Notes: generated by a model from the letters alone, not told the origin. DNA of 64,000 bases from an uncultured virus (IMG/VR IMGVR_UViG_3300012012_002042) (IMGVR_UViG_3300012012_002042); one strand, 5' to 3'; counted from the stretch's first letter, positions 27,477 through 49,635 are shown. Program-made: numbers and translations.

Positions 27477-29318
27477 ATGAAAGCAGTCCATCTGCTCTTG
27501 GAGTCCGAACTTCCCGAGGACATGCGCAATTACGGGCGCACCTACAACGCGGGGGCGATCAATGATATCCTCGCGGACGTGGGGCATCGCTATCCGGAGC
27601 ATTACGCCCCGATCATCGACAAGCTGGCCAGGCACGGTCGTGAAGCCTCCTGGCGTCAGGGCGAGACGATCACCATGAATGATCTGCGCCCGCTGATCGA
27701 CAAGGCCAAGGTTTTTGCGGAAATGGACGGGGAGGTAGCTCTCGCGAAAAAAGAATCCCCCAACCGTGAAGAGTATCGGGCACGCAGGGAGGCCATCTGG
27801 AAACGATTTTCCGGTCAGCTCGAGAAAGACACATTGAAGGCGGGAGTGACGCAGGGGAATAACGTGGCGATGTCTGTGGTGTCTGGCGCGCGCGGTTCCG
27901 CCGCCCAGATGAAATCCATGCTCACCACTCCGGGTGTTTATGCAGACGGACAGGGTCGCACCATTCCGATGTTCGTCCGAAACTCCCACAGCGAAGGATT
28001 GCGTCCGATGGAATTCCTCGCCTCTACCTTTGGAGCGCGTGCGGCGGTTTATTCCACGAAAGCGGGAACAGCGCGCGGCGGCGATTTGGGAAAACAATTG
28101 GTACAGATCACTTCCCCACTCGTTGTCACCAGCAGAGCAACAGGACACACCAACGGCATCGATCTGGACGTGGAAGATGACTCGTTGAAGTATCGGTTCA
28201 TGGCACGCGCGGCTGGCGGCTGGCCTGCCGGGACCATGATTGATGGGCGCGTGTTGGCCAGTCTGAAAAAGCAGAAGGTGGCGTCAGTGTTGGTGCATTC
28301 GCCACTCACAGATAATTCGGCCGAAGGAATATCTGCGGAATCCGCTGGCGCACGCAGAGGTGGAAGGTTGCCGAATCTTGGCGACATGGTCGGCCTCGTC
28401 TCCGCTCATGCAAGTTCCGAACCGGTCACGCAGGGATCCTTGCGCGAAAAACACACGGCAGGAATGACTGGGTCCAAAAAAGTATTCTCTGGGCTCAGCG
28501 CGATCGAACAATTCGTCCAATCACCCGAGTCGTTCCCCGATCGCGCCCCTGTGTCGGAGATCAGCGGGTTGGTTCGGGATATTCGGGATGCGCCCCAGGG
28601 TGGGAAAATTATCCGTGTGGAGGAAGAAGACCATTACGCGTTGCCAGGCTACGAGGTGTCAGTGAAGCCAGGGCAGGAAGTGGAAGCAGGGGATCAGTTG
28701 GCCGACGGCATCGTGGATCCTCGGGACATGGTCAGGCTGCGCGGATTGGGTGAGGGTCGGCGATACTACGCGAAGAGGCTGAAGCAAATCCTGGACGACT
28801 CCGGCGTGAAGACGGACATGAAGCACACGGAGATGATTGCTCGCGGAGCAATCGATCATGTGCGGATTACGGACCCTGAGGGTTTGGGTGATTATTTGCC
28901 GGATGATGTGGTCAGCTACAATGTGCTCGCTCACAATTACACACCGCCGGCTTCCGCCAAGCTGATGAAGCCGAGTTCCGCGGTGGGGCAATATTTGCAC
29001 GGGCCAGCGTTGCATTACACGATCGGGACGAAGCTGACTCCCCGAATGGCGAAGCACATGGAGACGCATGGATTTGATTCCGTTCCAGTTTCCGAAGAAG
29101 CTCCTGGATTCGAACCGGAGATGAGCCGGCTTCGCACGGCTTCCCACAATACTGAGGACTGGGCGCAGCAGCTGACGTCCAGCTACCAGTCGAAAAATTT
29201 GCTCAATTCAGCAACCAGAGGGCTCGATACGAATGTGGAGAGCAACGTCAACTTCGCGCCGAGACTGATGATCGGCGTCGGCTTCGGAAAGAATGTGAGA
29301 AAAACCGGAAAATTCTAA
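27477..29318 (+). CDS. rpoC: RNA polymerase beta' C-terminal half (bridge helix, trigger loop, jaw/clamp)
   Basis: SGARGS; GLRPMEFL..TFGAR...TARGG.L (bridge helix); AHASSEPVTQ..L..KHT.G (trigger loop); V.PGQ.VEAGDQL; KHTEMIAR. Confidence 0.9.
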   Translation: MKAVHLLLESELPEDMRNYGRTYNAGAINDILADVGHRYPEHYAPIIDKLARHGREASWRQGETITMNDLRPLIDKAKVFAEMDGEVALAKKESPNREEYRARREAIWKRFSGQLEKDTLKAGVTQGNNVAMSVVSGARGSAAQMKSMLTTPGVYADGQGRTIPMFVRNSHSEGLRPMEFLASTFGARAAVYSTKAGTARGGDLGKQLVQITSPLVVTSRATGHTNGIDLDVEDDSLKYRFMARAAGGWPAGTMIDGRVLASLKKQKVASVLVHSPLTDNSAEGISAESAGARRGGRLPNLGDMVGLVSAHASSEPVTQGSLREKHTAGMTGSKKVFSGLSAIEQFVQSPESFPDRAPVSEISGLVRDIRDAPQGGKIIRVEEEDHYALPGYEVSVKPGQEVEAGDQLADGIVDPRDMVRLRGLGEGRRYYAKRLKQILDDSGVKTDMKHTEMIARGAIDHVRITDPEGLGDYLPDDVVSYNVLAHNYTPPASAKLMKPSSAVGQYLHGPALHYTIGTKLTPRMAKHMETHGFDSVPVSEEAPGFEPEMSRLRTASHNTEDWAQQLTSSYQSKNLLNSATRGLDTNVESNVNFAPRLMIGVGFGKNVRKTGKF

Positions 29319-30703
29319 TGCACCCGTCCACTGCCATCGCCTTCGCGGCAATTGATTTCGAGAAGAATGCCAACGCGGCAGCCGCAAAGGTCCTCGGTCA
29401 CGCGTTGCCTGCGGCCGAGGGTGCTTTAGGCAAAGGCCTCGACATATTCGGGTGGCTCAATTCCGGCGGTGGAAAAAAGGAAGAACTGCTGCGCAAGGTA
29501 ATGTCCTACAATTTCGTGGACCCTGCGAACCGCCTGAAGAACGTGGCCGGCGGCGCAACCATCGGCGCAGGCATCGGCGGCCTCAATGCCGACAAGGGAC
29601 ACAAGATGAAGGGCGCGCTCGGCGGCGCTGTTGGTGGTGGATTATTTGGGCGGTTCGCGCCTGGAATGGCGCAGAGGGGAATGGGTCGGATTTTGACGAA
29701 TCTGGTGGAGCCTCGGAGTTACGAGACGGCGGAAAAAATCAAGAAGTTGAAGGGCTACAAGATCATGGACATGATCAAGGCCGTCGTGAAGGACAAGCCG
29801 ATTTACGAGGCCGCGAAGTTTCCCAATGAGGTCACCACACGCGGACCATATTCGGCACGTGAGGTTCCCTACCGCATGGGATTCGGTTTGAAGCCGCGGG
29901 CGTTCCGTAAATTCTTCACGGCAGATCCGACTGAAAAAGGAGTCCTGCATTACAACCCGAAGAGTCGGGAGGCGCAGAGCGAGCTGAAGTCGATGGTTCG
30001 GGATATCAGACAGCCGATGACCGATATTCACACAGGTGAAATTCCCAAAGGAAATGCAGACGGATCCCAATTGGTGTCATCCCGTGGAGTTCCCGGTAAT
30101 TTCCATGTGAAGCCGGACGGCACCTTCGAGGACAACTGGGATTTTGGCCTGCACCCGCACGAGAAAATTGATTCGCTCGGAAGCTTTGGACGCGCCTTCG
30201 TGAACATGTTCACAAGCCCGGTGAAATTGAAAGGCAAACTGCCAATGCCGGTCGCGGCGCCGGCCATCTCGTCGGATGCTGCCAAGAGTTTGATCATTCA
30301 TCCGGGGAACATGGGGCCTGGTGTGAACAAACTTCTGATGGGCGACAAGAAACTGCGCGGGGGAGAACCTGCTGCGGTCAACGAGGCATTGAATCGTCTG
30401 ATGAACGCGGCTCCGACGGCTCCGGAAGTCCCTCCGACGGCTGGCGCGGCTGGCAACTTGTCCGGCATTAATTTCAGCAGGATATTGGGGCCGGGAGGGA
30501 ATAAAATTCCGTTGCCGGCGGAGTCCGCGGTAAATGGTGATTTGAATATTCCGTTTCGTAAAGTGAAGATCCCTGGTGCAGTGCCGGAGCCGGAATACAG
30601 TGACTTCCTTGGACCGAACGGTGAGCGTCTGCTCAAGTCGGCAGCTGCGCGATATTTGGCGTTCGCGCTGATGGATATCGCACAGCTGGGAGGCTGCCCG
30701 TGA
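29318..30703 (+). CDS. putative internal virion protein with a short shared leader
   Basis: MHPSTAIAFAAIDFEKNA leader; glycine-zipper segments. Confidence 0.65.
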   Translation: MHPSTAIAFAAIDFEKNANAAAAKVLGHALPAAEGALGKGLDIFGWLNSGGGKKEELLRKVMSYNFVDPANRLKNVAGGATIGAGIGGLNADKGHKMKGALGGAVGGGLFGRFAPGMAQRGMGRILTNLVEPRSYETAEKIKKLKGYKIMDMIKAVVKDKPIYEAAKFPNEVTTRGPYSAREVPYRMGFGLKPRAFRKFFTADPTEKGVLHYNPKSREAQSELKSMVRDIRQPMTDIHTGEIPKGNADGSQLVSSRGVPGNFHVKPDGTFEDNWDFGLHPHEKIDSLGSFGRAFVNMFTSPVKLKGKLPMPVAAPAISSDAAKSLIIHPGNMGPGVNKLLMGDKKLRGGEPAAVNEALNRLMNAAPTAPEVPPTAGAAGNLSGINFSRILGPGGNKIPLPAESAVNGDLNIPFRKVKIPGAVPEPEYSDFLGPNGERLLKSAAARYLAFALMDIAQLGGCP

Positions 30704-30900
30704 AAACGCCTCCAAACTCCCACAAGGGCCGTTCGCTGGCGAAAAACATCGAGCGGAGAGAGGGCGCGGTTGAGTTACTCAAATTCTCCATCTCCGCGAT
30801 GAATCGCGTGCTAGTCGCAAAAGGTGTATGCACCGCAGACGAGCTGAGAGAAGCCTTTCGAGCGGAGAGTGAAAAGCGGCCCAACGGCAGAGCCGTGTGA
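30700..30900 (+). CDS. hypothetical protein
   Basis: GTGA overlap start, 66 aa. Confidence 0.5.
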   Translation: MKTPPNSHKGRSLAKNIERREGAVELLKFSISAMNRVLVAKGVCTADELREAFRAESEKRPNGRAV

Positions 30901-30954
30901 TTTTCAAATCCTTGAGTCTTGCTTAATTTCAAAAATCGTTCAGAATCCAAACTT

Positions 30955-32745
30955 ATGCGTTCCACTACTGCTCTGTCTTTTCACATCCTGTCCGCCAAAG
31001 AAATGATCAAATCGGGCTACGGTCAGGCCCTCGCACGCACCGGCCAGCTCGCACTCCGCGGCATGCAATCTCTGCGACCCGCCGTCAAAGCCATTCCAAG
31101 CATCGGCAAAATTCCTCCGACGGTACCGAAAGTAATCAATAAATTGGGAGGTCCAGCGACGGCAATCGCCGCGGGTGGACTTGGTGCGGGCAGCGTTGGC
31201 GCTCTCAATAGCGGATCAGACCAGTCAATGGGACCAGCATTCAACGGCGGGATTGGAAAGCCACCCGCCGCTGCGATTCCAGGTATCAGCCCCAAAGCCG
31301 ATTACGGCGGCGGTGTCGGCGAGCCCGCCCAGCCCGGACGTATCCAGCTGAACCCGAATACGGGTCCTGTGCAGGGCTGGAACACGCAAGGCATCACGCC
31401 TCAGACCGCGAACCCAGCCTGGAATCAGACCACTCGCGGCCTGACCACTCCGGAGCCTGCGCGCCCTCCGTCGAACACCTACGGTCTTTCTAATGTGCCC
31501 GCGCTTGACAATTTGCAGGGCGCTCATCTCCCCGGTAATATGGGGGATGCTGTGGTTCCTGAGTCTGCCCCGCAAGCCCCACCCCCCATGCAGGGGCCTG
31601 TCGATGAACGCTCGTTGCAAGGTCTGGATGATAGCACGAATCCCGAGAATCTTGCTACCAGTCAGCAGATGCAGAAGCCTGAGAGCGCCATCGCCGCCCC
31701 TGCCCCGCTTAATTCCGACTCGTATCTGCCTCCGGCTCCTCCAGCGCAGATGTCGATGGCTTCGGAGAGGCCTGAGAGCGCCATCGCCGCCCCTGCCCCG
31801 CTTAATTCCGACTCGTATCTGCCTCCGGCTCCTCCAGCGCAGATGTCGATGGCTTCGGAGAGGCCTGAGAGCGCCATCGCCGCCCCTGCCCCGCTTAATT
31901 CCGACTCGTATCTGCCTCCGGCTCCTCCAGCGCAGATGTCGATGGCTTCGGAGAGGCCTGTGCAGTCCGCCCCCGGTCTCACGTTCGCGACTCCGCCGCC
32001 CATGGATATTTCAGCGCCGGAACCGACCAGGGCCGTCCCGCCGAGCATCCCTCAGGCGACCGTGCAAGCACGTCCGCAGCAGCCGTCGGCACAAGCTATG
32101 CGCGATTTCCAGGTCGCCACCAAGTCGCGTTTCAATCCGAACAGCAAGGGCGATGTGGCGAGCATGCAGCAGATGATGGCGGCCCAGGCAGCCAGAGGAG
32201 GGGCGCGGTCGTCGCGGCTGGACAGTCAGAATACCATGTCGCCCTCGCAGTATGCGGCTTCGCAGCGCCGCGCACCGATGGGTGGTGTGAAGCGCGCCGG
32301 TGTGGGTGACGCCTTATTCAAGGCTATGGGTGAATCGATGCCGTCCGTGACAAAAGGTCTTGCCGGACATCTATCATACGCGCTTCCTGGTGCTACGACA
32401 GCCGCGCTGACTGCATATCCTTTGCTCGGCGCACTCGGCGGCGCTGTATTGCCCAGCGGTCAAGGTGCAGGTCAAGGGGCGCTGCGCGGTTTGAATACTG
32501 GATTAAACGCTACTGGCGGTGGAATTCTTGGAATGATGGGTGGCCACGGTCTGGCTGCGTTGGCCGGAGGAGACCTGAAGGCAAAATTCCTGGCACGGCT
32601 GCTCGGAGGAGCCACAGGAGCAGCCTCAGGAGCAATTCACGGCTACAACAACATGCCAAAACCCAAGGCCACGCCGGCTTCAAATATGATGTTTAACCAT
32701 CCCCCGAAAAGCGCAAAAGTGCTCAACGCCTACCTTGGACAATGA
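30955..32745 (+). CDS. putative internal virion protein, Pro-rich with glycine zippers
   Basis: 21-aa leader MRSTTALSFHILSAKEMIKSG; internal VKRAG. Confidence 0.7.
   Translation: MRSTTALSFHILSAKEMIKSGYGQALARTGQLALRGMQSLRPAVKAIPSIGKIPPTVPKVINKLGGPATAIAAGGLGAGSVGALNSGSDQSMGPAFNGGIGKPPAAAIPGISPKADYGGGVGEPAQPGRIQLNPNTGPVQGWNTQGITPQTANPAWNQTTRGLTTPEPARPPSNTYGLSNVPALDNLQGAHLPGNMGDAVVPESAPQAPPPMQGPVDERSLQGLDDSTNPENLATSQQMQKPESAIAAPAPLNSDSYLPPAPPAQMSMASERPESAIAAPAPLNSDSYLPPAPPAQMSMASERPESAIAAPAPLNSDSYLPPAPPAQMSMASERPVQSAPGLTFATPPPMDISAPEPTRAVPPSIPQATVQARPQQPSAQAMRDFQVATKSRFNPNSKGDVASMQQMMAAQAARGGARSSRLDSQNTMSPSQYAASQRRAPMGGVKRAGVGDALFKAMGESMPSVTKGLAGHLSYALPGATTAALTAYPLLGALGGAVLPSGQGAGQGALRGLNTGLNATGGGILGMMGGHGLAALAGGDLKAKFLARLLGGATGAASGAIHGYNNMPKPKATPASNMMFNHPPKSAKVLNAYLGQ
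31678..31960 (+). repeat. 3 x 93-bp perfect tandem repeat (31 aa)
   Basis: Units start at 31678, 31771 and 31864. Confidence 0.95.
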
Positions 32746-33866
32746 AACCTTCCACCGACATCGCATTTCACCTACTCGCCGCATCGGAGATCGTGAAATC
32801 GGCCACCCTATTGGGGGAGGCCGGAAAGAATTTGTCTTCAAGACCCACGCCCACGCTACCGCCTGAAATCACGCAGCGGATCAAGCAGCTTCAGGAAGCC
32901 AGCGCGCGCAACAGCCTCGACATAATGGAGAAAATCCAGGGAGAGCGCGCGATGATCCCAAATCATCCGACACTGTCCAAGGCGCTCATCGGTACTGGTG
33001 CAGTGGTCGGCACTGCCGGTCTCGCCGGATTATTCAGTCACTTGCTGAATCAGCGAGCGAACAAGAAGCAGCAGAAAAAGACTGCGGCATACAATTCCGA
33101 TCTCGCCATTGGGATTCTCAACGTCATCGAAATCCATGAAAATGGATGGGAGAAATCAGCAGGGATTGGCGACTTGATCGGCAAGGCCCTCCCCTATGCT
33201 GGGAAATTAATCACAAGTGCCCCGACCCGCATTGCCGGGTGGTGGAACAAGATGCGCGGCGGCAAAGGTCTCGTGGCGGCTGCTGAAAAAGGTCTTGCCG
33301 CCGAGAGCCCCGAGGTCGCGGCAGCGCTGGCTCAGCGTGCCAAAGGTGTATCCGCGTTGGCAGGCGCCAACAAAGAATTGTTCGGCAGTGCCGTCCCGAA
33401 ATTCGACCCCACCACCGGCAAACGGATTTGGGGCGGGATGCGCGGAGAAGTCAGCGACGCCTTCAAGGCCATGCCGAAATGGCAGCAGAACGCTGTCAAA
33501 GGTCTCGGCTGGGCCGGCACAACCGCAGGCACCATCGCACTGGGCCCTAATTCGGTCGGCGGTCAGATCCACGGTTACGTCAAAGGCAAGGAAGGTGAAT
33601 TGTCCGGTGCACGTCAAGCGCAGGACATGGCGGCTGAGGCGGCCAAGAATTTGCAGAACATGCCCTTGATGGACCGTTTGAAGCTCGGCCTCGGCACGGT
33701 ATTCAGTCCGACGAGCACTGGCGAGGGAATTGGCAACTTCATTCAGAGCATCGGACGTCCGCCAGGATGGACTCCGCCGCAGACGGCCCCGGGTGTTCGA
33801 TCGCCCTCTTCGAGCTTCTTCGGTGCGGCTCCGCGCGCGTCCGCGGCGGTCGACGGAATGTCCTGA
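32742..33866 (+). CDS. putative internal virion protein
   Basis: Leader MKPSTDIAFHLLAASEIVKSA; internal KKTA and WEKSAG. Confidence 0.7.
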   Translation: MKPSTDIAFHLLAASEIVKSATLLGEAGKNLSSRPTPTLPPEITQRIKQLQEASARNSLDIMEKIQGERAMIPNHPTLSKALIGTGAVVGTAGLAGLFSHLLNQRANKKQQKKTAAYNSDLAIGILNVIEIHENGWEKSAGIGDLIGKALPYAGKLITSAPTRIAGWWNKMRGGKGLVAAAEKGLAAESPEVAAALAQRAKGVSALAGANKELFGSAVPKFDPTTGKRIWGGMRGEVSDAFKAMPKWQQNAVKGLGWAGTTAGTIALGPNSVGGQIHGYVKGKEGELSGARQAQDMAAEAAKNLQNMPLMDRLKLGLGTVFSPTSTGEGIGNFIQSIGRPPGWTPPQTAPGVRSPSSSFFGAAPRASAAVDGMS

Positions 33867-33884
33867 ACCAGTTCGATCCCACAC

Positions 33885-36266
33885 ATGAAAACAGCCACGA
33901 TGCAGAAGCCCAGTTACGACTGGATCAAATCCGCCGAGGAGGTGCTGGACAACGACAGCACCGAAAAAGAATTCGCGAGCCAGGCATATTCTGCCGTGGC
34001 TCAGCGGGCCGGCAAGCTCCTCGACAAAGATCATTTCCTCGGGTTCGAGATGATCTACAGCAACGAGGAGAAGAATCGTCTCGTCGGCATCTTCGCATTC
34101 CGCGTGAACAAGGACTTGCTCTACGCGCCAATCTTCTTCCTGAACGGCAAAATCAAGGGTCAAGAATTGCTCTACCGCGTCGGCCCGCAATTGTTCGTGC
34201 CGCTCACCGAAGGCTGGGTCAAGGAACTCACCAAGAAGGCCGAGCATAAATTGGGAGAGGGTCAGGACCGCTCTCGCCTGAACCGTCTGCCCACCGGCAC
34301 GGATCTGGCACCGTTGATCATCCCAGGTCGCGGGACGAAATACGCCAACGCCAACTTCGCATTCCAATCCATCAATCCCGATGCCGCTCGCCAGGACATG
34401 ATAGACGAAATCATCGCGGACATGTCCAGCATGGACAAATACGCGAATTACGTCCCCGGGAACATGATCCGGAAATTCATCGTCGAGGACGGCGGACGCC
34501 CGGCCATCGGCTACATCGCGGACATCATCAAATCCAGCGCAGTCTGTGCTGAGATGCTGATGCAGTGCATCGATGGAAACCTCGACATGATCATGCCCGC
34601 GGATCTGCCGGACCCAGTGGTCAAATCCGCTTCGGCCGAGATCGCCGAGCTGGTGATCCATGTGGGAGGTGTGAAAAATGCCGCGCTGAAAAAGGACGGC
34701 ATCTCAGCCATGTGCAAATACGGATTTGCCATCGAGGACAATCGCGACGTCAAAGGGCTCTCCACAGTTTACGAGCCGGCCGGTAATTGGGAGGAAGTCA
34801 ATTCCCCTGGAGTTTACGATCTGCCCGTCATCGGGGAATCCGGCGGTGAGGCGGTGATGGTTCGCACGCAGGAATTGTCCGGCAGCGATCTGTCCTCGTC
34901 CAGTCCGTATCCGTGCCCTCCGGGAGCAACGCAGTCCGAGGACAGCATGGGCATTCTTTTCCTGAAACCCGGCAACACATTCCTAGCTCCAGCTGATTAC
35001 GGCAAGCGGCGTTCCATTATGGGACGCGTGACGGGACAGGAATTGTCGGACGTGATGGAGCCGAAGGGCAAGAAGTCCCCGAAGGAAGGCGAGGCGTATC
35101 TCATTTTCGACAAGCGTACTGGGATGGCGTCACGTCGCGCATATTATTTCGCGGAAATCTCCTCGAGCACTGGCGGCGTGAAGAACGCCATCATCGTCCC
35201 GATTTCGCAGGATGGCGTGCAGCCGTGGCGCGGTCTGTCGATCATGCTCAATCCAGACGCCCCGCGCACGGATTGGGAGACTGGCATCCTCAATGAAGAC
35301 GTCCTCTTCATCAAGCTCGACACGGAGGAAGAGACGAAACGGGACAACGAACCCGATGTCTCCAATCTTTGTCACACTGCTGGCAAGGTGGTGACGGTGC
35401 CGAAAATGCGTTTGGTGGATGTTCCGGCGATCATGCCTACTTCCGCCCTCACAGCTGAGTTGGCCCGCGGGAATTTCCAGAGCGGGTATTTGGCGAAGCG
35501 TGAGGACGACAAATTCGAGATCAAATTCGCGCACACGGATCTGCTGACGTTCGAGACGGTAAAATCGGCCGCTGCCTGTCTCGCCCATGCCTACCGCATC
35601 CCCGGAGAAACGGTGATGGAATTGGTGGATGGCATGCTGGAAAAGAAGCGGGTCGATTTCGTGATGGAGAAATCCGCCTACGGTGTGACGACAATCTCCA
35701 GTCATCCGCAATTCCGGACGAATTACGACGCCACGCTCGGTACCGAGTTGGAATTCCCGCAGAGCTTCAGACTCGACACGATCACTTCGCAGCCGCCAAT
35801 TCGCGACATCCCGCTCAATGAGGTCTGGGATCCCGCGGGCGGTCGCGGCGGGCATACTCAGGGGCCGCGGTCAGAGATCGCAAACGCGAAGAATCTCGAT
35901 CAGGAAACGCTGATGCACGCATCTCCTGAGGATATTCAGCGGATGCAGAAACAGAAGGACACCCCGTTCGCCTTTGAACACGGTGTGCTCAGCAGTTTGG
36001 TGAAGACGTTCGACGCTGCCGCCATGCTCGACAAATATGAGCCGGCATTCGAGGCCTGCCTGGATCGTCTTGGGCGTACGCTCTTCCTGTTCTACTGGAA
36101 GCCGAAAGACATGGAAAAAGCGTTCGGCGTGGACGACATGGCGGACAAGGAGCAGGGATTGATTTCCTGCTTCAAGGCTCTGGGCGACCAGATCCTGGAG
36201 ATGCGTCAGCGCAATACGACCGAGACCGCGTCGAGTCGCAACGGCTCGCCTGCGCTTGGGAAATAA
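33885..36266 (+). CDS. large head-associated protein of unknown function
   Basis: 793 aa in the head cluster, several K-x-A motifs. Confidence 0.6.
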   Translation: MKTATMQKPSYDWIKSAEEVLDNDSTEKEFASQAYSAVAQRAGKLLDKDHFLGFEMIYSNEEKNRLVGIFAFRVNKDLLYAPIFFLNGKIKGQELLYRVGPQLFVPLTEGWVKELTKKAEHKLGEGQDRSRLNRLPTGTDLAPLIIPGRGTKYANANFAFQSINPDAARQDMIDEIIADMSSMDKYANYVPGNMIRKFIVEDGGRPAIGYIADIIKSSAVCAEMLMQCIDGNLDMIMPADLPDPVVKSASAEIAELVIHVGGVKNAALKKDGISAMCKYGFAIEDNRDVKGLSTVYEPAGNWEEVNSPGVYDLPVIGESGGEAVMVRTQELSGSDLSSSSPYPCPPGATQSEDSMGILFLKPGNTFLAPADYGKRRSIMGRVTGQELSDVMEPKGKKSPKEGEAYLIFDKRTGMASRRAYYFAEISSSTGGVKNAIIVPISQDGVQPWRGLSIMLNPDAPRTDWETGILNEDVLFIKLDTEEETKRDNEPDVSNLCHTAGKVVTVPKMRLVDVPAIMPTSALTAELARGNFQSGYLAKREDDKFEIKFAHTDLLTFETVKSAAACLAHAYRIPGETVMELVDGMLEKKRVDFVMEKSAYGVTTISSHPQFRTNYDATLGTELEFPQSFRLDTITSQPPIRDIPLNEVWDPAGGRGGHTQGPRSEIANAKNLDQETLMHASPEDIQRMQKQKDTPFAFEHGVLSSLVKTFDAAAMLDKYEPAFEACLDRLGRTLFLFYWKPKDMEKAFGVDDMADKEQGLISCFKALGDQILEMRQRNTTETASSRNGSPALGK

Positions 36267-36270
36267 TTCC

Positions 36271-37017
36271 ATGCACACAAACACCGCGCTCGCGTTCCAT
36301 ATCATTTACGCCGACGGTATGATCAAATCGGCGGAGAAGCGTGAAAAGGAGCGACCCTCCAATTCCAATGCGGCCGGCCGCTGGCTGAACGCGAAGGCAC
36401 TACGCTCGCAAGCAGCCATCGATCACCCGATTCGTTCCATGGTCGGAAGAATGGCTGGCGCCGGTCTGCCAATGCTGGCTGGAGCTGGCTTGGGCGCGGG
36501 CGCTGCGCATTTGACGGGAGGTGATCTCAGGGACAAAATCCTCGCCGGCGGTGGCGGGGCTCTCACAGGGTTGCTGCTCAGCAAACTCCTCGGAACTCAC
36601 GAAGCTGCACAGTCGGTCGCCTCTCAAGGTCTGACGGAAAAAGGACGCGAAGGCAGTTTGCTCGACACGCATGAAGGTCTGGAGGAGCGTTCGATTGGGC
36701 GGAATGCTTTGCACAGCGCAGGGAAACTCGCATTGCCTGCGGGACTCCTGGGCGCAGGCCTCGGCGGCCTCGCTTCCGCAGCTACTGCTCAGCCTGGGGA
36801 GAGCCGTCTGATGCGGGCTCTTGCGGGCGCGGCGACCGGAGGATTGGCTTCGGCGGCTGGCGGCGCGGTAGCAGGTGGAATTGGTGGTGCGGTGAATTCG
36901 GCGATTCACAAAAATACTTCGGGTGAATCACAGGCGCGCGCGATCCGGACGTTGGCTCAGCATCCGATTCGTTCAGCGTTGCCGGGCGGGGATATCTACG
37001 GCGCCTTGGACAAATGA
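36271..37017 (+). CDS. putative internal virion glycine-zipper membrane protein
   Basis: Leader MHTNTALAFHIIYADGMIKSA; four GxxxG-rich hydrophobic segments. Confidence 0.7.
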   Translation: MHTNTALAFHIIYADGMIKSAEKREKERPSNSNAAGRWLNAKALRSQAAIDHPIRSMVGRMAGAGLPMLAGAGLGAGAAHLTGGDLRDKILAGGGGALTGLLLSKLLGTHEAAQSVASQGLTEKGREGSLLDTHEGLEERSIGRNALHSAGKLALPAGLLGAGLGGLASAATAQPGESRLMRALAGAATGGLASAAGGAVAGGIGGAVNSAIHKNTSGESQARAIRTLAQHPIRSALPGGDIYGALDK

Positions 37018-37949: not shown

Positions 37950-37957
37950 TTCCACAG

Positions 37958-37986: not shown

Positions 37987-37992
37987 ACGAAC

Positions 37993-40238: not shown

Positions 40239-40240
40239 TT

Positions 40241-41293
40241 ATGGCCGATCTGCAAAAACTCCTCAACGCAATCATTGCGACTTCAGCCGCACGCAATCCG
40301 CAGAGCCTGGCGAATTGCAAGTCCGCCGAGGATCTCTCTGGCATTTCTCCGAAGGCCCGTCGCATTGCCCTGCTCGTAAAATATGCCTCAGCCGAGGCTG
40401 GCCCGTCCGTCCTGGATAAAGTCATGAATGCCGTGCAACACAATCGCGCGGTGCAGGTCGGTCTAGGGTCAGCTCTTCTCGGCGGCGGCATGGCAGCGCT
40501 GGCTCCCAGGAAGCAAGGCGAGGGTCTCGGTCGCAAGACCCTGCGGGTGCTCGGGAATGCAGCGTTGGCCGGCGGCCTTGGTGCGGGAGCGACTGCAGCC
40601 CTTGGCTACGGTTCCGATCAGATTGCGACGGCATTGCCGAAGGGTGATGTGGATCCAATCACGCATGCGACTCACTCACCGGTGGTGCGCGGGATTGGGG
40701 CGCTGGTCGGTGCGGGCGCGGGGCATCGGTATGGCCTTGGCGCTGGCGGTAAAAGTCCTGCAGATGCTTCTTTGGAAAGTCTCCACAATTTACTGAGTAA
40801 AGCAAAAGCTGCGCCGGTGCCTGCAGCACCTTCTATTACTCCCATATTGGCTGAGGAGCATGCTGCAGCAAGAGCAGCAGCTGCTGCAGCAGGAAGTAAA
40901 CATCAAGACATCTTCCAGAAATTTAAGGACACGATGAAGCAGCCGGTCAATAAGGCGTTCGACGCTGACGCGGCCAGACACTCCCTGACTGAATTTATGG
41001 GGCGGTCCACCACACCGAACGCGCGAGAATTCATCACGGATGCCAATGCCGGTGCCGGGACAGCTGAAGGAATACTTGAGGAACTTAACAACGCCGGTTA
41101 CAATTATGGCAAGGGTTGGAAAGAGCGTGCCGGTCTGTTCGGGAAACGGCATCTGAATCGTTTCAATAACAATAAGCTGCGCATGGGCGGATCACTCGCG
41201 CGCCTCGGCGGCGGTGCGGCGGCTGGATATTTCATCCCGGAAATTGGGGACGGGATCATGAACATTTTGGGAGTCCACCCTTTTGAATCATGA
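40241..41293 (+). CDS. putative internal virion glycine-zipper protein
   Basis: CKSA and VKYA sites followed by Gly/Ala-rich hydrophobic helices. Confidence 0.65.
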   Translation: MADLQKLLNAIIATSAARNPQSLANCKSAEDLSGISPKARRIALLVKYASAEAGPSVLDKVMNAVQHNRAVQVGLGSALLGGGMAALAPRKQGEGLGRKTLRVLGNAALAGGLGAGATAALGYGSDQIATALPKGDVDPITHATHSPVVRGIGALVGAGAGHRYGLGAGGKSPADASLESLHNLLSKAKAAPVPAAPSITPILAEEHAAARAAAAAAGSKHQDIFQKFKDTMKQPVNKAFDADAARHSLTEFMGRSTTPNAREFITDANAGAGTAEGILEELNNAGYNYGKGWKERAGLFGKRHLNRFNNNKLRMGGSLARLGGGAAAGYFIPEIGDGIMNILGVHPFES

Positions 41294-41631
41294 ACACCGA
41301 CGACGTCAAAATCCGGGTCTGCCGCAAAGTAATTCCAATTGGACCGCAAGCGCTGTCTGACGGTATTCCAGCCGACTCCGCCGTGGACACGTTTGGGATC
41401 GGAGTCCCTGACATGAAATACGAGGTCGGCCCGCCGATGATGTCTGTCGATCTGTCGAATCTCCCGTTCGACATGGATCAATTATTTGCCGCGCCCGTGG
41501 CAGGAATGCGCGTAAACGGCATCTGGTTCAAGCGTGCATCTGCGGAGGACGCTGTGATCCTGAGTGAGGATTATCTCCAGGCGGATTCCTCGCCGACCGC
41601 GCAAGCCCCCACACAAGAACTCGAAAAATGA
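41290..41631 (+). CDS. hypothetical protein
   Basis: ATGA overlaps at both ends. Confidence 0.6.
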   Translation: MNTDDVKIRVCRKVIPIGPQALSDGIPADSAVDTFGIGVPDMKYEVGPPMMSVDLSNLPFDMDQLFAAPVAGMRVNGIWFKRASAEDAVILSEDYLQADSSPTAQAPTQELEK

Positions 41632-43142
41632 ACCTGCTCACCGAACAAGATTGGATGGTCAAATGTCACGCGCAGGACGATCAGGAAGCGCTGTTCAAGG
41701 CGTGTGGCGGCCACATGAATTTCCTTCTCGATGTAGACTCCCGCGTGAAGTCGGCGTCGTCCGACGTGATCACACGTCAGATCATTTCCGAGTTCAAACC
41801 GCCAAAAGGATATTTCGCGCAGCACATGATCATCATGGGTGACGGCGAAGCGTATGGGGCAAACCGCAATGGGGATTACTGGTCCAAGCAGGCCAACCTC
41901 ACGCGGCACCCGACGTTCGTGACGGAGGGTGCGTATTATCGTGAGCACAATCACAAACGTCGGGATCTCTCGATTGGTGACGTGAAGTATGCGGCCTACA
42001 ATCCGGCGATGGCCCGCGTGGAACTCATCGTCTGGGGCAACATCAAGAAGGCGAACGACATTTACGAGTCCCTCAAAAAGGGAGAGGCGCGCAGCAATTC
42101 CATGTCTGCGCGTGTGAAATTCGACGTGTGCTCCTGCTGCAACCAGAAGTCCCCGAGCCCGCAATATTATTGCAAGCACGCCGCGGAGAAAATGAACCAG
42201 TGGGTTCCCGAGTTTCAGAAGTATGCCTACGTCGACAACCCGAACCCCACCTACTTCGATGCTTCCGATGTCGGGTATCCGGCAGACCGCCTGGCGCACT
42301 ACATCGAATACGCCTTCCCGGATGAGGACATGAAAAAGGCAGCCAGCGCAAATCGCCCGGTCATCACTGGTGTCGACTGGGCGAAGTTTTATGGCGCGGA
42401 TGAGTATGAGCATCACAATCTCAAACTGAACGCGTGGCAGACTCGGATGATGGAGAAGATGGCAGCCCACGAGCAGTGGATATCTGACAACGTGGACAGT
42501 TCCAGCGACAATGCGAAGGTTGCATTCGTCCGGAATATCGCGCCGCTTTATTGGGCGGATGAATTGACGGACGAGGAGATTCACGAACTCCGTCACGTCA
42601 GGCCTCCGACGTTCTTCGGCAAGATGGCCAAGTCTGCGAGCATTCTTCCTTTCCGCAGTTTCCTGTCTTACGCCACCGGGCGGACGATGAAGGATCTCAA
42701 TTCAGATCCGTGCGTAAAATTCGCGGCGGAGAAAATACTCCCGCAGCTGTTCCGCCAACTGGTGAAGAATGGCTGTGCGTGTCAGGCGATGGACCCGCAG
42801 GTATTCTCGGGCGACTCGGCCGGGACCATTTCGGTTGATCCTGGTGTGACTGATCCTGTGAATAAACTCATGGGGAAATTGGGGCAGAAATACACGGGAG
42901 ATCCGGAGGCTGTGAAGGCGCGTGTCATCCGCATCACAATTATCAAATCGGGCTCGACGGAGCGCGGCAATTACCCCGAAGTTGTTTCCGAATTCCGCGG
43001 GCCTGATGAGGAGGGCGCTCAATTCCTGGCAGGAGTTTACGGAATGTATAAGCTTGCAGCATTCCAAACAATGTCCGATTATGGAGTTCCAATTACGGAA
43101 CCCATGGAAGTTCTTTTCGCGTCCTCGCAGTTTCACCAATAA
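41628..43142 (+). CDS. prohead (capsid maturation) protease
   Basis: NRNGD, YREH (candidate catalytic His), SMS (candidate catalytic Ser) followed by D.CSCC...CKH, FDASDV..PAD; upstream of scaffold and capsid genes. Confidence 0.75.
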   Translation: MNLLTEQDWMVKCHAQDDQEALFKACGGHMNFLLDVDSRVKSASSDVITRQIISEFKPPKGYFAQHMIIMGDGEAYGANRNGDYWSKQANLTRHPTFVTEGAYYREHNHKRRDLSIGDVKYAAYNPAMARVELIVWGNIKKANDIYESLKKGEARSNSMSARVKFDVCSCCNQKSPSPQYYCKHAAEKMNQWVPEFQKYAYVDNPNPTYFDASDVGYPADRLAHYIEYAFPDEDMKKAASANRPVITGVDWAKFYGADEYEHHNLKLNAWQTRMMEKMAAHEQWISDNVDSSSDNAKVAFVRNIAPLYWADELTDEEIHELRHVRPPTFFGKMAKSASILPFRSFLSYATGRTMKDLNSDPCVKFAAEKILPQLFRQLVKNGCACQAMDPQVFSGDSAGTISVDPGVTDPVNKLMGKLGQKYTGDPEAVKARVIRITIIKSGSTERGNYPEVVSEFRGPDEEGAQFLAGVYGMYKLAAFQTMSDYGVPITEPMEVLFASSQFHQ

Positions 43143-43148
43143 TTTTCC

Positions 43149-43177
43149 TTGTCATCCGTCGAAATAATAATCACAAT
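43149..43177 (+). promoter_or_regulatory. sigma70-like promoter of the scaffold-capsid operon
   Basis: TTGTCA-17 nt-CACAAT in the intergenic gap. Confidence 0.6.
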
Positions 43178-43201
43178 CCCAACACTCAACTATCACCACA
43201 C

Positions 43202-44338
43202 ATGAAAGTCCTCGATCGTAACCAACTCTTCAAGAAAGTCGCCGCAGCCGCCACCGCCAAATCCGCAGCAGCCGGACACGCGGTCACTTCCCCCGATGCA
43301 GATCGGGCGGACGCCACCAATACCGTGGCTGGCGCTGCACAGCCTGCGTGTGACGCCGACGACCGCGGCCGCATGCAAATGCCGAAGGACGGCAAGCCAA
43401 GGGCGTACGGCGGAGTGGAAGCGGGTTCTGTCATTACCAAGACCACCACCCCCACAGGTCTCGGCGAGGATATTCCGTCAGCCTCGGAGCATCCGCAGTC
43501 TGGCGACAAGCTGGCGGCGGTCCAAGCGAATTTCCGCAATCTGCTCGCAGACCTCACGAATCCGGCGACCGCGGCTACGACGAGCGCACCAGCGAAAACT
43601 GCGGCGGCGAGCCCTGACGCGAATGTGGAAATCACGCCGGCATTCGCTGTGAAACTGGCGCACTCGATTTTCGCCATTGAAGGCGGCGCTGAACTCGCCC
43701 GCCAATTCCTTCTCAAGAATCACGCACAGGAAGAGGCGAATGCGATCGTGAAGAACGCATTCGACAGTCACGCAGCATTCCTGACCGAAGTGGAATACGC
43801 CGACGAAATGGAAAAGGCAGCCTCGGCGCAGCAGGAGTCCGCAAATCAATATCTCGACGACATCAAGGCCGCGTTCGACGCGCAGCCCCCGGAAGAGCAG
43901 GCGCGCATCATCAAGATGGCGTCCGTTCACGAGAAGGTCCGTTCCCAGCTTCCTGACCATCCCTGGATCAAGGACGCTTACGCGGGTGGTGCGGCCGACG
44001 CCGACGCCGATTCCGAAGCAGCAGGCCCTGAAGGTGCCCCTGCACCCGAAGATCCGGAAGGTGGAGATCAGACCCCGTCTCCCGAGGACCTGGCGCAGCT
44101 CATAATGATGCTGGTGCAGTCCGGGGAGATCCCGCAGGAAGAGGGCGAGAAAATGCTGCAAGAACTCGCTGCGGCGCTGCAGCAGGGTGGCGGCGGCCCT
44201 GAAGGTGGCGCTCCTCCGATGGGTGGCGGCCCTGAAGGTGGCGCTCCTCCGATGGGTGGCGACCCTGAAGCAGAGGCGACCAAGGAAGCCTCTGCAGCCA
44301 TCGCGATGATCAACTCTGTATTCCAACCCGCAAACTAA
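43202..44338 (+). CDS. putative scaffolding protein
   Basis: Acidic Ala-rich helical/disordered protein between protease and capsid; at least 8 K-x-A motifs; duplicated GGGPEGGAPPM. Confidence 0.65.
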   Translation: MKVLDRNQLFKKVAAAATAKSAAAGHAVTSPDADRADATNTVAGAAQPACDADDRGRMQMPKDGKPRAYGGVEAGSVITKTTTPTGLGEDIPSASEHPQSGDKLAAVQANFRNLLADLTNPATAATTSAPAKTAAASPDANVEITPAFAVKLAHSIFAIEGGAELARQFLLKNHAQEEANAIVKNAFDSHAAFLTEVEYADEMEKAASAQQESANQYLDDIKAAFDAQPPEEQARIIKMASVHEKVRSQLPDHPWIKDAYAGGAADADADSEAAGPEGAPAPEDPEGGDQTPSPEDLAQLIMMLVQSGEIPQEEGEKMLQELAAALQQGGGGPEGGAPPMGGGPEGGAPPMGGDPEAEATKEASAAIAMINSVFQPAN

Positions 44339-44343
44339 TCCAG

Positions 44344-44838: not shown

Positions 44839-44866
44839 GTAATCAGCAAGAAAAAAGAACAACACC

Positions 44867-45571: not shown

Positions 45572-45580
45572 TCCAAATCC

Positions 45581-46543
45581 ATGAATACCAAAAACAATCC
45601 TGATCAGCAGGAAATGTCGCCGGAAATCCTGGACCAGGAATTCCTCACAGCTCTCCAGGACGCAATGCCTGGCGATATGTGCAAGAACGCGTCGGCCATC
45701 GGTCAAGGTCTCATCAAACGCAAGATCCGCGAGTCGGGCGTCCAACGGAAGGTTCAGCCTTTCAAGGACGTCAAGCCCGAGGACCTCACGTACAACGGCA
45801 ACGAGTCGCAGTATATCCGCGAGGAAATGGAACCCGAGCAGGAAGCTGCTGTCTGTCTGAATTACAATGATTCGGCGGACACGGCGTTCTACCGCGGCGA
45901 CTACTTCGACACGAACTTCTACCGGATCTCCTCACGGAAATTCACGAAGAACGTGTGGCAGCTCTCGACCTACAAAAACAACCTCCGTGAAATGGTCATG
46001 GGCAATATGCTCAAAGACATGCACACTGCGGAGGACGTTCAGTGGTTCAAGGGTCTCGACCAGATCGTTGGTTCGCCCGTCGGTGTTGGCGCTTCCGGCG
46101 TCAAGCAGAACTTCGAAATTGTCGGCCGCATCAGCCGAGCGAATTACGCGGATAATCTCCGCCATTTGCTCGACCGCGACCTGAATAATTCCGTGTTTTG
46201 TACGAACAGAACAACCCCAATTGAGTTCCTGAAATGGTATCGCGACGAAGTCGGCGGTGACAAATGTCAGGACCTCCTCATTGAGGGTCTCGAAGCACTC
46301 ACGGAATACAAGTTCTTCAACATCCCGCACATCGCGACGATCAAGAAGACACTCGTGCCCGACAACGTCATCTACAAATTCGCCGAGCCCGATTATCTCG
46401 GTCGTGCCTATCGCTTGCAGGACATCAAGACCTACATCAAGCGCGAGGAGCACACGATCACGATGCATGCCGACGAATTCATCGGGGTTTCGATCCCGAA
46501 CGTGAATGCCGTTCAGCGGAGCAAGCACATCATCGCTCCGTAA
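45581..46543 (+). CDS. major capsid protein
   Basis: Size and position after protease/scaffold/decoration genes; RKIRESG, KFTKNVWQL, KDMHTAED; followed by a strong terminator. Confidence 0.75.
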   Translation: MNTKNNPDQQEMSPEILDQEFLTALQDAMPGDMCKNASAIGQGLIKRKIRESGVQRKVQPFKDVKPEDLTYNGNESQYIREEMEPEQEAAVCLNYNDSADTAFYRGDYFDTNFYRISSRKFTKNVWQLSTYKNNLREMVMGNMLKDMHTAEDVQWFKGLDQIVGSPVGVGASGVKQNFEIVGRISRANYADNLRHLLDRDLNNSVFCTNRTTPIEFLKWYRDEVGGDKCQDLLIEGLEALTEYKFFNIPHIATIKKTLVPDNVIYKFAEPDYLGRAYRLQDIKTYIKREEHTITMHADEFIGVSIPNVNAVQRSKHIIAP

Positions 46544-46567
46544 CGAATCGCGACTTCGATTAATCAC

Positions 46568-46608
46568 GACCGGGCCACTGGAGAAATCTGGTGGCCCGGT
46601 TTGTTTTT
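46568..46608 (+). terminator. intrinsic terminator after the capsid gene
   Basis: GACCGGGCCACTGGA-GAAA-TCTGGTGGCCCGGTT followed by TGTTTTT. Confidence 0.9.
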
Positions 46609-46713
46609 ACGGGACAAATAATTCCGAATCATTTAAGGTGGTGTTTGTGACTTCACTGTTTCGTCCATTTGTAAAAAACGCCATTTGAAAGTGCCATTGT
46701 GAAAAACAATTTT

Positions 46714-47961
46714 ATGAAATCTACCGACCCAATCTTCATCGAAGAATTTGTGAAACAATGCTGCATCGCCGGCCTGTCGCTGGAGACGACCGCGGCGCTG
46801 CTCGACAATGCTCAGCAGAAAGAAATGTCCGAGGATCCCGTATATCGTGATCAGTTCGAGAAATCCGCCATGCTCGAGACAATCGCCAAAGTTGGGCCGA
46901 AGGCTCTCGAAGGTGGCAAACAGATTTCCCGAATGCTGATTGAAGCCGGCGAGAAAATCCTCGGCACAAATACCGCCCAGCGCGCCCTCGGACATGTTGC
47001 AACGATGGAAATGGACAAGGCTGCCTTTGTGAAAAATGCCGGACCATTCGGCATCATCGGAAAAGGTGTGGACTGGCTGGGATCCAAAGTGCTCGGCGGC
47101 CTCAGCAAAGGTGTCACCAAAGGAGTTCCGGCTGTTGCCGGAGCCGCAGGCCTAGGTATCATGTCGGGTATCAAGAGGATTCCGGGAGTCGCGAAAGCCT
47201 TGTTCGGCTCAATCCCTCGTGCCGCGACCACTGCGGCCGTTGGAACAGGGGCTGGCATGTGGTTGAACAAACTGCACAATGACGCCGAAATTGGTAATGC
47301 GCTGCGCGCACTGCCGAACGGCATTCTCGGAGGTTCCTCGGGCTCGTCGTATGATGGTGGCGGCGGCGGTGGCGGGGCCAGCAGCCCCTTCGACTACATC
47401 AACCGGACATATTCCGGCGCGTCTGGTGCTGATATTTCCGGCGGTGGGAGTGGTGGTGGAAGTTCCGGAGGTGGCGTGAGGTCGCACACTGGCGTGACGC
47501 AGTTAAAGCATCTGCAAGGGCAGCAACAGAGTGTGATGAAACTGAAAGCCGATACTGCGCGGCAATTGCAGGACGCCAGACAGAGCGGCAATCATTCTTT
47601 GGTCCCGGGACTCCAGACGCGTCTGAAAGAATTGGACGTGGAGGGTAACGGATACGCAGGGCAGATGAGCAGGCTCACGCAGAATCTGAAATCGGATCAG
47701 GAGAACCTGCATAGAGCAGCGCGCGACGGTTTGGGCTCAGTGAATCGAGTGCGTCCAAGGTTCGAGAGCGACTTCGACAGGCTCACGAAGCTCCGCGAGG
47801 GTCCGTCCACGATCGGCAATTTCCTTCCGCGCCTGATCCATGGCGGGGACAACAGAATCCAGCAGAAGCAGCAAACGGCTGCGGACATGATTGAACGCTT
47901 GAATTCCCAGCAGAAGCTTCTGGAGCAGGCAAGGAACACCAACTACGCACCCATCGAGTAA
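46714..47961 (+). CDS. putative internal virion protein (Gly-rich, coiled coil)
   Basis: FEKSA and FVKNA motifs, amphipathic Gly-rich middle region. Confidence 0.65.
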   Translation: MKSTDPIFIEEFVKQCCIAGLSLETTAALLDNAQQKEMSEDPVYRDQFEKSAMLETIAKVGPKALEGGKQISRMLIEAGEKILGTNTAQRALGHVATMEMDKAAFVKNAGPFGIIGKGVDWLGSKVLGGLSKGVTKGVPAVAGAAGLGIMSGIKRIPGVAKALFGSIPRAATTAAVGTGAGMWLNKLHNDAEIGNALRALPNGILGGSSGSSYDGGGGGGGASSPFDYINRTYSGASGADISGGGSGGGSSGGGVRSHTGVTQLKHLQGQQQSVMKLKADTARQLQDARQSGNHSLVPGLQTRLKELDVEGNGYAGQMSRLTQNLKSDQENLHRAARDGLGSVNRVRPRFESDFDRLTKLREGPSTIGNFLPRLIHGGDNRIQQKQQTAADMIERLNSQQKLLEQARNTNYAPIE

Positions 47962-48693: not shown

Positions 48694-48696
48694 TTT

Positions 48697-49635
48697 ATGA
48701 ATGCGAATACCGAATTAGCGTTTCATATCCTGGCAGCGGTCGACATGGTGAAGCGCGCAGACACACGCCACGGTAGGGAATACGCAAGGATGCTGAGCGA
48801 CCCTACGGCATTCAGTTCAGACAGTCGTAGAATTTTGGAGTTTCTGAACACCGAGGCTCGACGTGGTCAATCCGGCACAGGGGAAATTTTTAAGGGACGG
48901 GAGATGCGTTCTCTCGGTCAATCTCTGCTTAGTTATCCTGAAAGATACGCGGTGACACCAATGACTCCGATGCTGGCTGCTGATCGCTTGCAGGACATAA
49001 AGACGATGACGTCTGGGCGGCATTTGGCCTTGCCGCATGAGTATGTAATTCCAGCAGGTGTAAATGCTGAAGTCACGGGAAGGATCAATCCTCCGAACTC
49101 CGGTTCTATTTTTAGAGGCGGGGATATTTTACCAGACCAGGTCCAGTTCTTCTCGAAGCATCCTGATGTGGCTGCAAACTACGCGATGGGTCGTCGCGGC
49201 GATGTAACGTCTGGTCGAACCAACCGACAACTGCACGCGGAGCAGCGCCCGTTTAATGCTTACAAGGCGGATTCGTTCGATACCCTGCGTACGCAGTCAA
49301 CAGGCGGTCCGGAAGGTCCTGCGGCGGTAAACGTAAATCGTGAAATACCCGCGGCTCGGTATCCAGGCTCCAAGAGCATGGTGCAAACATTTGGATCGGT
49401 GAACCCGAGTTACGAAACGACGGCGCATGTGTCGCCGACAAATACGCCCAAGTGGCTGGGACAATACGGAGCGCGGCATGTTCGGGCGGCGGATGGTATG
49501 CCCGCCCTCGCTTTATCAAGAGTCTCCGGGGCCTCAATACCCAAAGCATTCGGTCCACACTTGATTCAGTCTCCCAGTTTTGGAACCCGCGTGCTGTCAG
49601 GGTTGAAGAATCTCCGAAAATTAATCAGACTGTGA
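48697..49635 (+). CDS. putative ADP-ribosyltransferase-fold virion cargo protein
   Basis: 21-aa leader MNANTELAFHILAAVDMVKRA; IFRG ... FFSKHPDVAANYA ... YE. Confidence 0.55.
   Translation: MNANTELAFHILAAVDMVKRADTRHGREYARMLSDPTAFSSDSRRILEFLNTEARRGQSGTGEIFKGREMRSLGQSLLSYPERYAVTPMTPMLAADRLQDIKTMTSGRHLALPHEYVIPAGVNAEVTGRINPPNSGSIFRGGDILPDQVQFFSKHPDVAANYAMGRRGDVTSGRTNRQLHAEQRPFNAYKADSFDTLRTQSTGGPEGPAAVNVNREIPAARYPGSKSMVQTFGSVNPSYETTAHVSPTNTPKWLGQYGARHVRAADGMPALALSRVSGASIPKAFGPHLIQSPSFGTRVLSGLKNLRKLIRL

Follow-up and report, generated by a model that had tools for sequence, protein, structure and literature searches.

A leader shared by unrelated proteins

The subject of this analysis is a stretch of 64,000 nucleotides from an uncultured virus (IMG/VR IMGVR_UViG_3300012012_002042), referred to here as the window; the whole genome is probably longer than these 64 kb. 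The window is a segment of a novel large phage that is distant kin of Salmonella phage Arash, Vibrio phage D69 and Bacillus phage G. The genes of the window lie on the plus strand, and genes and proteins are named below by the coordinate at which they start. Within the virion region, where the genes are almost without matches in Pfam or PHROGs, four proteins (30955, 32742, 36271 and 48697), each beginning at an ATG, have in common an ungapped 21-residue N-terminus, which will be called the “leader”. A fifth protein, 29318, starts with MHPSTAIAFAAIDFEKNA, an 18-residue decayed version of the leader that ends in EKNA. The last three residues are KSG in 30955, KSA in 32742 and 36271, KRA in 48697 and KNA in 29318, and in the alignment of all five leaders M1, T5, F9, A14 and K19 are invariant.

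The distribution of the leader within the window was evaluated at both the DNA and the protein level. A degenerate DNA pattern back-translated from the leader consensus has 4 matches in the window, all of them at the four leader starts, and has 0 matches in 100 dinucleotide-preserving shuffles of the window. A hidden Markov model (HMM) built from the four full leaders and run against the six-frame translation of the window recovers those four training copies, which is circular, and then 29318 (E 0.041, at the start codon); the next match, on the minus strand, is noise (E 0.57). The matches are thus found only at the N-termini of head-region genes, but because just 64 kb has been seen, the restriction of the leader to virion-region genes holds for this window only. 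The N-terminus of 13352 (MNISTLV...EMIKG), which is faintly leader-like by eye, was rejected as a further copy, since it is without leader HMM support.

The bodies that follow the leaders are unrelated. The lowest BLASTP E-value among the five is 2.0, and the lowest overall is 0.042, for 32742 against the non-leader protein 46714. Nucleotide identity between leaders amounts to 35-41 of 63 positions, compared with 15-17/63 directly downstream and 12-22/63 upstream, and the sequence likeness between the leader proteins ceases at the terminal residue of K-x-A. Each pair of leaders has 9-12 identical residues, 4-7 of which are encoded by different codons. With this low DNA identity and many synonymous differences, the leaders have diverged too far for homologous recombination, which implies that purifying selection acts on the peptide. 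A preliminary description of this DNA had claimed the four N-termini, which the translations reproduce exactly as quoted, the shorter leader on 29318, the unrelated bodies, the diverged leader DNA and the end of the likeness at K-x-A, and had predicted an occurrence confined to the N-termini of virion-region genes; within the window, these claims and the prediction are borne out by the results above.

The K-x-A motif

The tripeptide with which the leader ends is also found elsewhere in the head module. No tripeptide is more over-represented than KSA in the proteins from 29318 to 50000, where 17 occurrences were observed and 2.85 expected from within-protein shuffles (z 8.5), and KSA is 5.6 times as dense in the head module as in the other proteins of the window (Fisher p 2e-4). 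Of these 17 occurrences, eight fall within the first 52 residues (p 0.0012), and K-x-[AG] is present in the first 56 residues of 16 of the 19 head-module proteins. The upstream peptide is different in each of the six proteins 33885, 37993, 40241, 41628, 43202 and 46714 that have an N-terminal K-S-A, and the major capsid protein, 45581, has K-N-A at residues 35-37, the predicted end of its propeptide.

The conservation of the motif was assessed in related loci, obtained from 435 relatives in IMG/VR identified through an alignment of the protease 41628; 79 loci were kept, and counts are given over 80 loci. K-x-A occupies the aligned site of the window in 62 of 65 distinct orthologues of the protease, 36 of 52 of the capsid protein, 22 of 42 of 33885 and 5 of 13 of 37993, and the Ala at the last conserved motif position is often followed by Ser or Ala. 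K.A was counted in 900 distinct plus-strand proteins from the related loci, each at least 140 amino acids long: 398 of them have it in residues 5-34, compared with 216 and 237 in two internal control windows, and the control motifs E.A, R.A, K.G, K.S and A.K have no N-terminal excess in the same 900 proteins. Similar N-terminal endings can be seen by eye in Arash, in Vibrio phage D69 and in the portal and protease of phage G, and the Arash proteins gp221, gp223 and gp224 have K-S-A near the N-terminus. Enrichment and positional conservation of this kind suggest that K-x-A would be a scissile motif, and the leader is likely to end at the cutting site of the head-maturation protease.

The prohead protease

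The predicted structure of protein 41628 identifies it as a prohead protease fused to a helical C-terminal domain. This identity is assigned because the protein has the gp21 fold and invariant His and Ser residues, and because its relatives include gp19 of phage G, which is termed head maturation protease in the available portion of PMC12484599. There are 59 homologues, on contigs of up to 217 kb, and relatives found by tblastn comprise Salmonella phage Arash gp222, three Vibrio phages and Bacillus phage G gp19. The protease gene lies 2.4 kb upstream of the capsid gene 45581, and Arash and phage G have the same order.

An AlphaFold2 (AF2) model of the protease computed from 46 homologues has a predicted local distance difference test score (pLDDT) of 85. 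T4 gp21 (5jbl) provides the three best Foldseek matches to this model (prob 0.99-1.0, E 0.046-0.095), and the VIA-align superposition on 5jbl_B aligns 148/164 residues with Z 12.7 and a root-mean-square deviation of 3.0 A, the runner-up being the human cytomegalovirus (HCMV) protease with Z 5.9. H66, H107 and S158 are invariant in the 46 protease sequences. The spacing between H107 and S158 is 51 residues, and that between H85 and S140 of T4 gp21, given as the catalytic pair in a figure legend of PMC12991175, is 55. The protease has K-S-A sites of its own at residues 41-43 and 335-337, and K41 and A43 are nearly invariant in the alignment. A complex prediction for the protease with a 30-residue leader peptide gave a score of 0.00 without controls, and counts neither for nor against an interaction. 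Three of the homologues (P0044, P0057 and P0061) contain intein or homing-endonuclease domains (PF14528, PF13403, PF14890).

Leaders in related phages

The tagged genes are lineage-specific accessory inserts in a conserved head module. Homologues of the five leader genes are present in 0 of the 80 loci, while those of the protease are present in 79, of the capsid protein in 65, of 33885 in 46, of the RNA polymerase beta-prime gene in 43, of 49632 in 20, and of 50450 and 43202 in 12 each. In one related locus (L006) the counterparts of 47962 and 49632 adjoin, without a counterpart of 48697 between them.

Leaders of the type found in the window were also sought beyond it. The leader HMM detects nothing better than E 4.2 in the 80 related loci. 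A leader profile compared with 1.84 billion representatives gave 5 matches at E<=0.001, of which P0002, P0004, P0005 and P0006 are real and P0003 is a repeat artefact. P0002 and P0005, together with P0001, are orthologues of 30955 in which the leader is kept. P0004 is an orthologue of 32742 that retains 19 of the 21 leader residues, its body having 88 gap columns (286 vs 374 amino acids), and P0066 and P0067 are orthologues of 48697. Over the orthologues, 18-21 of the 21 leader residues are kept without insertion or deletion, and the bodies have 31-478 gap columns. P0006, from another contig, joins a full leader to a sixth, unrelated body, and the leader of 29318 is identical to it at 9 of 13 positions. 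The degenerate DNA pattern has 0 matches in viral contigs. Two matches in metagenome contigs (AT-rich DNA, short open reading frames, no gene) and one in a genome contig (a 38-codon open reading frame in a Draconibacterium metagenome-assembled genome) were dismissed as chance.

Leaders on other sequence themes were detected by a conservative all-against-all comparison of N-termini in which pairs with similar bodies were discarded. In 16 of the 80 loci there are families of 2-7 plus-strand proteins that are alike only at a short N-terminus, nearly all of which end in K-x-A. Since for technical reasons this comparison misses the leader family of the window itself, it is an undercount. In the lineages with short leaders the capsid protein and the protease end in the same E-K-x-A, and the part of the leader that is specific to the cargo comprises only a few residues.

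Genes of the leader module and of the window

The features of the window are collected in Table 1. Searches of Pfam and PHROGs up to E<=2 found no match for any leader protein or for most head genes, and a PDB sequence search with 30955 and 29318 returned nothing meaningful.

Table 1. Coordinates of leader segments, leader-bearing genes and other features of the window
Feature	Coordinates	Strand	Remarks
Leader segment of gene 30955-32745	30955..31017	+	21 aa (amino acids), MRSTTALSFHILSAKEMIKSG
Leader segment of gene 32742-33866	32742..32804	+	21 aa, ending IVKSA
Leader segment of gene 36271-37017	36271..36333	+	21 aa, ending MIKSA
Leader segment of gene 48697-49635	48697..48759	+	21 aa, ending MVKRA
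Decayed leader segment of gene 29318-30703	29318..29371	+	18 aa, MHPSTAIAFAAIDFEKNA, ending K-N-A
Cargo candidate 29318	29318..30703	+	461 aa, Gly/Ala-rich hydrophobic segments
Cargo candidate 30955	30955..32745	+	596 aa, P/A/Q-rich, C-terminal part glycine-zipper-like
Cargo candidate 32742	32742..33866	+	374 aa
Cargo candidate 36271	36271..37017	+	248 aa, rich in Gly/Ala zippers
Cargo candidate 48697	48697..49635	+	312 aa, globular-looking body
Conserved head-module protein	33885..36266	+	793 aa, K-S-A 15-17
Head-module protein	37993..39489	+	different N-terminal peptide ending RIKSA (residues 16-20; K-S-A 18-20)
Gly/Ala-zipper protein	40241..41293	+	different 29-aa N-terminal peptide ending CKSA (K-S-A 27-29)
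Prohead maturation protease	41628..43142	+	504 aa; gp21/assemblin-fold domain, ~residues 7-218, and helical C-terminal domain
Scaffold candidate	43202..44338	+	acidic (isoelectric point 4.5), A/E/P-rich, directly after protease; K-S-A 20-22
Major capsid protein	45581..46543	+	BLASTP to Arash gp226 “major capsid protein”, E 6e-22
Gly-rich protein	46714..47961	+	~52-aa N-terminal segment ending EKSA (K-S-A 50-52)
RNA polymerase beta-prime C-terminal half	27477..29318	+	Pfam Rpb1_5 8.5e-19; without leader
Flavin-dependent thymidylate synthase	138-1106
Sliding clamp	4445-5557
Polyvalent protein	7967-13312		1781 aa; InPase, MazG, NUDIX and RNA polymerase beta-prime catalytic domain
Tail fibre	15800-18733
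Amidase endolysin	25379-26311
DUF2345 spike-like protein	54476-56932

Two of the leader proteins have a further K-S-A near the C-terminus. In 29318 the sequence LLKSA is followed by a 21-residue tail, AARYLAFALMDIAQLGGCP (30640-30703), and in 30955 the sequence PPKSA is followed by 9 residues (32707-32745); these C-terminal pieces may also be cut off. The tail of 29318 faintly resembles the leader core. A 93-nucleotide tandem repeat in 30955 (31673-31960; 3.1 copies, 99% matches) encodes a 31-residue P/A/S-rich unit, and P0001, which is 95% identical to 30955, has one copy fewer. The family of 48697 has the invariant blocks FR.G, FFS.HPDVAANYA.GRR and NPSYET. The ESM Atlas neighbours of 48697 all lie below the threshold (0.81-0.86); four of them are named, and three of these are ADP-ribosyltransferase families (0.81-0.82). 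Its AF2 model from 4 sequences has a pLDDT of 33. The protein could be an Alt-like injected enzyme, the ADP-ribosyltransferase lead being a weak one.

Among the other head-module proteins, 43202 is put forward as a candidate scaffold. The 793-residue protein 33885 has family-invariant K-x-A sites at 247-249 and 596-598, in which K247, K596 and A598 are invariant, and by analogy with the T4 core proteins it may be cut into several pieces. It has weak similarity to Arash gp218, a “structural protein”, and when it was used as a query for close relatives there was no match among phage genomes or viral contigs. An assignment of 33885 as the portal was rejected: its profile is without a solved relative, hhalign against the phage G portal gp14 gives prob 0.2, and the portal label in Arash sits on another gene, gp204, and not on gp218. 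The ESM Atlas provided no usable match for protein 37014. The likely start of the gene 49632-50453 is a GTG at 49632 that overlaps the stop of 48697, and not 49452, because orthologues in 20 loci align from that residue.

The gene for the C-terminal half of RNA polymerase beta-prime directly precedes the first leader gene, 29318. In Arash virions the subunits of RNA polymerase rank with the most abundant of the proteins detected, according to the available portion of PMC10585845, and this lineage therefore probably packages its polymerase. Beta-prime is split in the window: the Rpb1_2 part forms the C-terminus of the polyvalent protein, and the Rpb1_4/5 part is encoded 14 kb from there by a gene of its own. 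Within the polyvalent protein K-S-A occurs at residues 487, 831 and 862, in the latter two cases shortly before the MazG domain, and these might be processing sites between domains. A 12-13 residue N-terminus ending in AEKSV is common to the polyvalent protein (7967-8002) and the unrelated protein 50450 (50450-50488), and may represent either another mini-leader or a form of the site with K-x-V. There is no Shine-Dalgarno-like sequence before the inspected starts of plus-strand genes (e.g. 29298-29317, 32722-32741, 36251-36270), and the GC content is 55-60%; the host may be independent of Shine-Dalgarno-led initiation.

Comparison with known systems

The internal proteins of T4 are diverse and have in common only a capsid-targeting sequence (CTS) of 10-20 residues, which takes them into the scaffolding core and which gp21 removes along with the propeptide of the capsid protein, as described in the available portions of PMC3012670 and PMC5694885. 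The leader of the window resembles the CTS of IPI-III and Alt in being a short N-terminal peptide on diverse head proteins, accompanied by a protease of the same fold, and in ending at a prohead-protease motif that is also found in the capsid protein, a correspondence that in the window is at the level of the motif only. The T4 sequences are cut after Glu (L/I-x-E type), as are the substrates of all the gp21-family proteases described in the accessible part of PMC5694885, whereas the window leaders end in K-x-A or K-x-G. Since they have no terminal Glu, the resemblance to the T4 CTS is functional and does not extend to the motif itself. The 21-residue leader is also at the long end compared with the 10-20 residues of the CTS, and the genes of the window have no sequence relationship to T4 genes, the likeness being confined to the protease fold. 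As far as can be judged from sequence, the leader system would work like the T4 CTS, in an unrelated phage clade and with a different motif and a longer tag.

In phages of the phiKZ/SPN3US type a self-trimming gp21-like protease also processes many head and ejection proteins, and a virion RNA polymerase is packaged. The sites in these phages are A-x-E or S/A/G-x-E, and the propeptides often exceed 100 residues; SPN3US gp53 and gp54, paralogues that are 34% identical, have identical N-terminal 15 residues (PMC5694885, available portion). The shared N-terminus is thus found on paralogues in that case, whereas in the window it is found on unrelated bodies and ends in another motif. A short N-terminal loading signal is also present in DarB of phage P1, the N-terminal 30 residues of which target a reporter to the capsid (PMC9024508, available portion). 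The window encodes a DarB-like polyvalent protein as well; however, the P1 signal is described for one protein and not for a family, and the polyvalent protein of the window lacks the 21-residue leader.

Two comparisons lie further afield. Herpesvirus assemblins, which belong to the same protease fold family, cleave their maturation sites between Ala and Ser, and the Ala of K-x-A is likewise often followed by Ser or Ala; the herpesvirus consensus, however, is not known to include the conserved Lys that precedes the Ala by two residues. The cargo-loading peptides of encapsulins resemble the leader in that a short terminal peptide addresses unrelated cargo into a shell with the HK97 fold, but they usually lie at the C-terminus, undergo no removal by a protease and serve a non-viral compartment. 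In a search of the full-text literature, subscription-only papers aside, neither these leaders nor a prohead-protease motif of the form K-x-A turned up.

Interpretation and alternative explanations

It is probable that the 21-residue peptide is an N-terminal propeptide resembling the T4 CTS, removed by the protease, and that its carriers are exchangeable proteins, either internal to the head or ejected, of a novel large phage with a virion RNA polymerase. The leader, probably an amphipathic helix, would bring each protein into the core of the assembling prohead. After closure of the shell the gp21-fold protease would cut at or next to the terminal [IV]-K-[SR]-[AG], and the cut would free the mature protein inside the head; the same protease would also trim the capsid protein, itself and other head proteins at their K-x-A sites. 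On this interpretation the leader proteins would be encapsidated, the leader rather than the body would direct their encapsidation, and the conserved upstream positions (T5, F9, H10, 11-12 and A14) would form the docking part. The portable, cleaved packaging tag that had been proposed in the preliminary description is thereby supported in part: it fits all of the in silico tests, from which we infer its cleavage, encapsidation and targeting.

Several points weigh against this interpretation or limit its reach. The 64-kb view of the genome restricts its scope. K.A is common internally too, in 24-26% of 30-residue windows, so that a lone occurrence of the motif says little about whether that site is cut, and cleavage of the leader, like the exact scissile bond, is a proposal drawn from the genes. 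In the virion proteome table of Arash, gp221, gp223 and gp224 are listed at 100% “coverage”, which at face value argues against complete removal, although the column is hard to interpret because 100% is also given for proteins with 2 unique peptides. P0068, a homologue of 48697 with 40% identity, has no leader as called. Finally, since the part common to the short-leader relatives amounts to little beyond the E-K-x-A site, set at the very N-terminal end, the leader could be only a site of protease recognition, and a receptor-binding role apart from protease recognition is not required by the data.

This last point is the basis of the main rival explanation, according to which the leader is only an extended protease recognition site or propeptide that holds glycine-zipper proteins with membrane activity in an inert or soluble state before they reach the head interior, their incorporation being directed by the bodies or by other partners. 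We consider this unlikely. Several bodies in the window do have Gly/Ala-rich hydrophobic segments, and the common N-terminus of the relatives is barely longer than the E-K-x-A site of their capsid protein and protease. However, T5, F9, H10, [IL]11-12 and A14 are conserved well upstream of K-x-A, none of these positions is found in the K-S-A N-termini of 33885, 37993, 40241, 41628 and 43202, and in T4 an equally short CTS suffices for targeting (PMC5694885, available portion).

Each of the remaining explanations is less likely than this one. A leader retained in the mature protein, where it would later act as an ejection or translocation signal or as a membrane-insertion helix for entry into the host envelope, would suit bodies that resemble ejection or membrane-active proteins, and it draws on the fact that leader cleavage is itself inferred in the interpretation given above; but the leader ends exactly at K-x-A, a motif that is both enriched and, in capsid protein and protease alike, conserved in position, the likeness stops there, and P0004 keeps the leader although its body is without 88 residues of 32742, all of which makes retention quite improbable. 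More improbable still is a functionless relic, either of common ancestry through one duplicated gene or of a recombination junction in cassette exchange. The location of all five leader genes in one module is compatible with such a relic, as are the T4 internal-protein loci, which in the available portion of PMC3012670 comprise a highly diverse set with only the CTS in common. Against it stand the DNA of the leaders, with its low identity, many synonymous differences and flanks at random level, and the occurrence of analogous leaders on other sequence themes in the 16 related loci. That the leader could be a Sec, Tat or lipoprotein export signal is scarcely credible: the peptide is N-terminal and partly hydrophobic and has a small residue at its end, but on inspection it does not resemble an export signal, since the hydrophobic run is about 8 residues long, whereas an unbroken core of at least 10 would be expected after a positive n-region, and is broken by His, Ser, Asp or Glu, there is neither a twin arginine nor a lipobox cysteine, and Lys is at -3 from the presumed cut, where the -3/-1 rule of signal peptidase disfavours it. 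Moreover, the capsid protein and the prohead protease, whose assembly is cytoplasmic, have the same K-x-A ending.

Implications for large phages

The interpretation of the leader as a cleaved targeting propeptide can be extended, as a possibility that we advance tentatively, to a clade of large, mostly uncultivated virion-RNA-polymerase phages with genomes of ~150-200 kb, which has at least 435 contigs in IMG/VR and includes the isolates Arash and Vibrio phage D69. In this clade a protease of the gp21 fold that had changed its specificity from Glu to K-x-A would be combined with a pool of lineage-specific tags that plug unrelated genes into the head as injected cargo, and the tag of the present lineage would have grown into a 21-residue helix in which T5-A14 bind a receptor and the cleavage site lies apart from them.

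Such a system would have practical consequences. It would provide a rule for the prediction of head cargo in hundreds of uncultivated phage genomes, namely a head-module gene with an N-terminal peptide that ends in K-x-A, and the proteins so predicted are likely to be anti-defence or host-takeover effectors. In relatives that can be cultivated, among them Arash and Vibrio phage D69, the short tags are candidates for packaging proteins, and if the tag does have two parts, it would be a portable loading signal that is usable for packaging chosen proteins. If the interpretation is true, a specificity for K-x-A would be a novelty among proteases of the gp21 family, and capsid-targeting leaders, rather than being peculiar to T4, would be a means by which large phages in general load exchangeable injected proteins.

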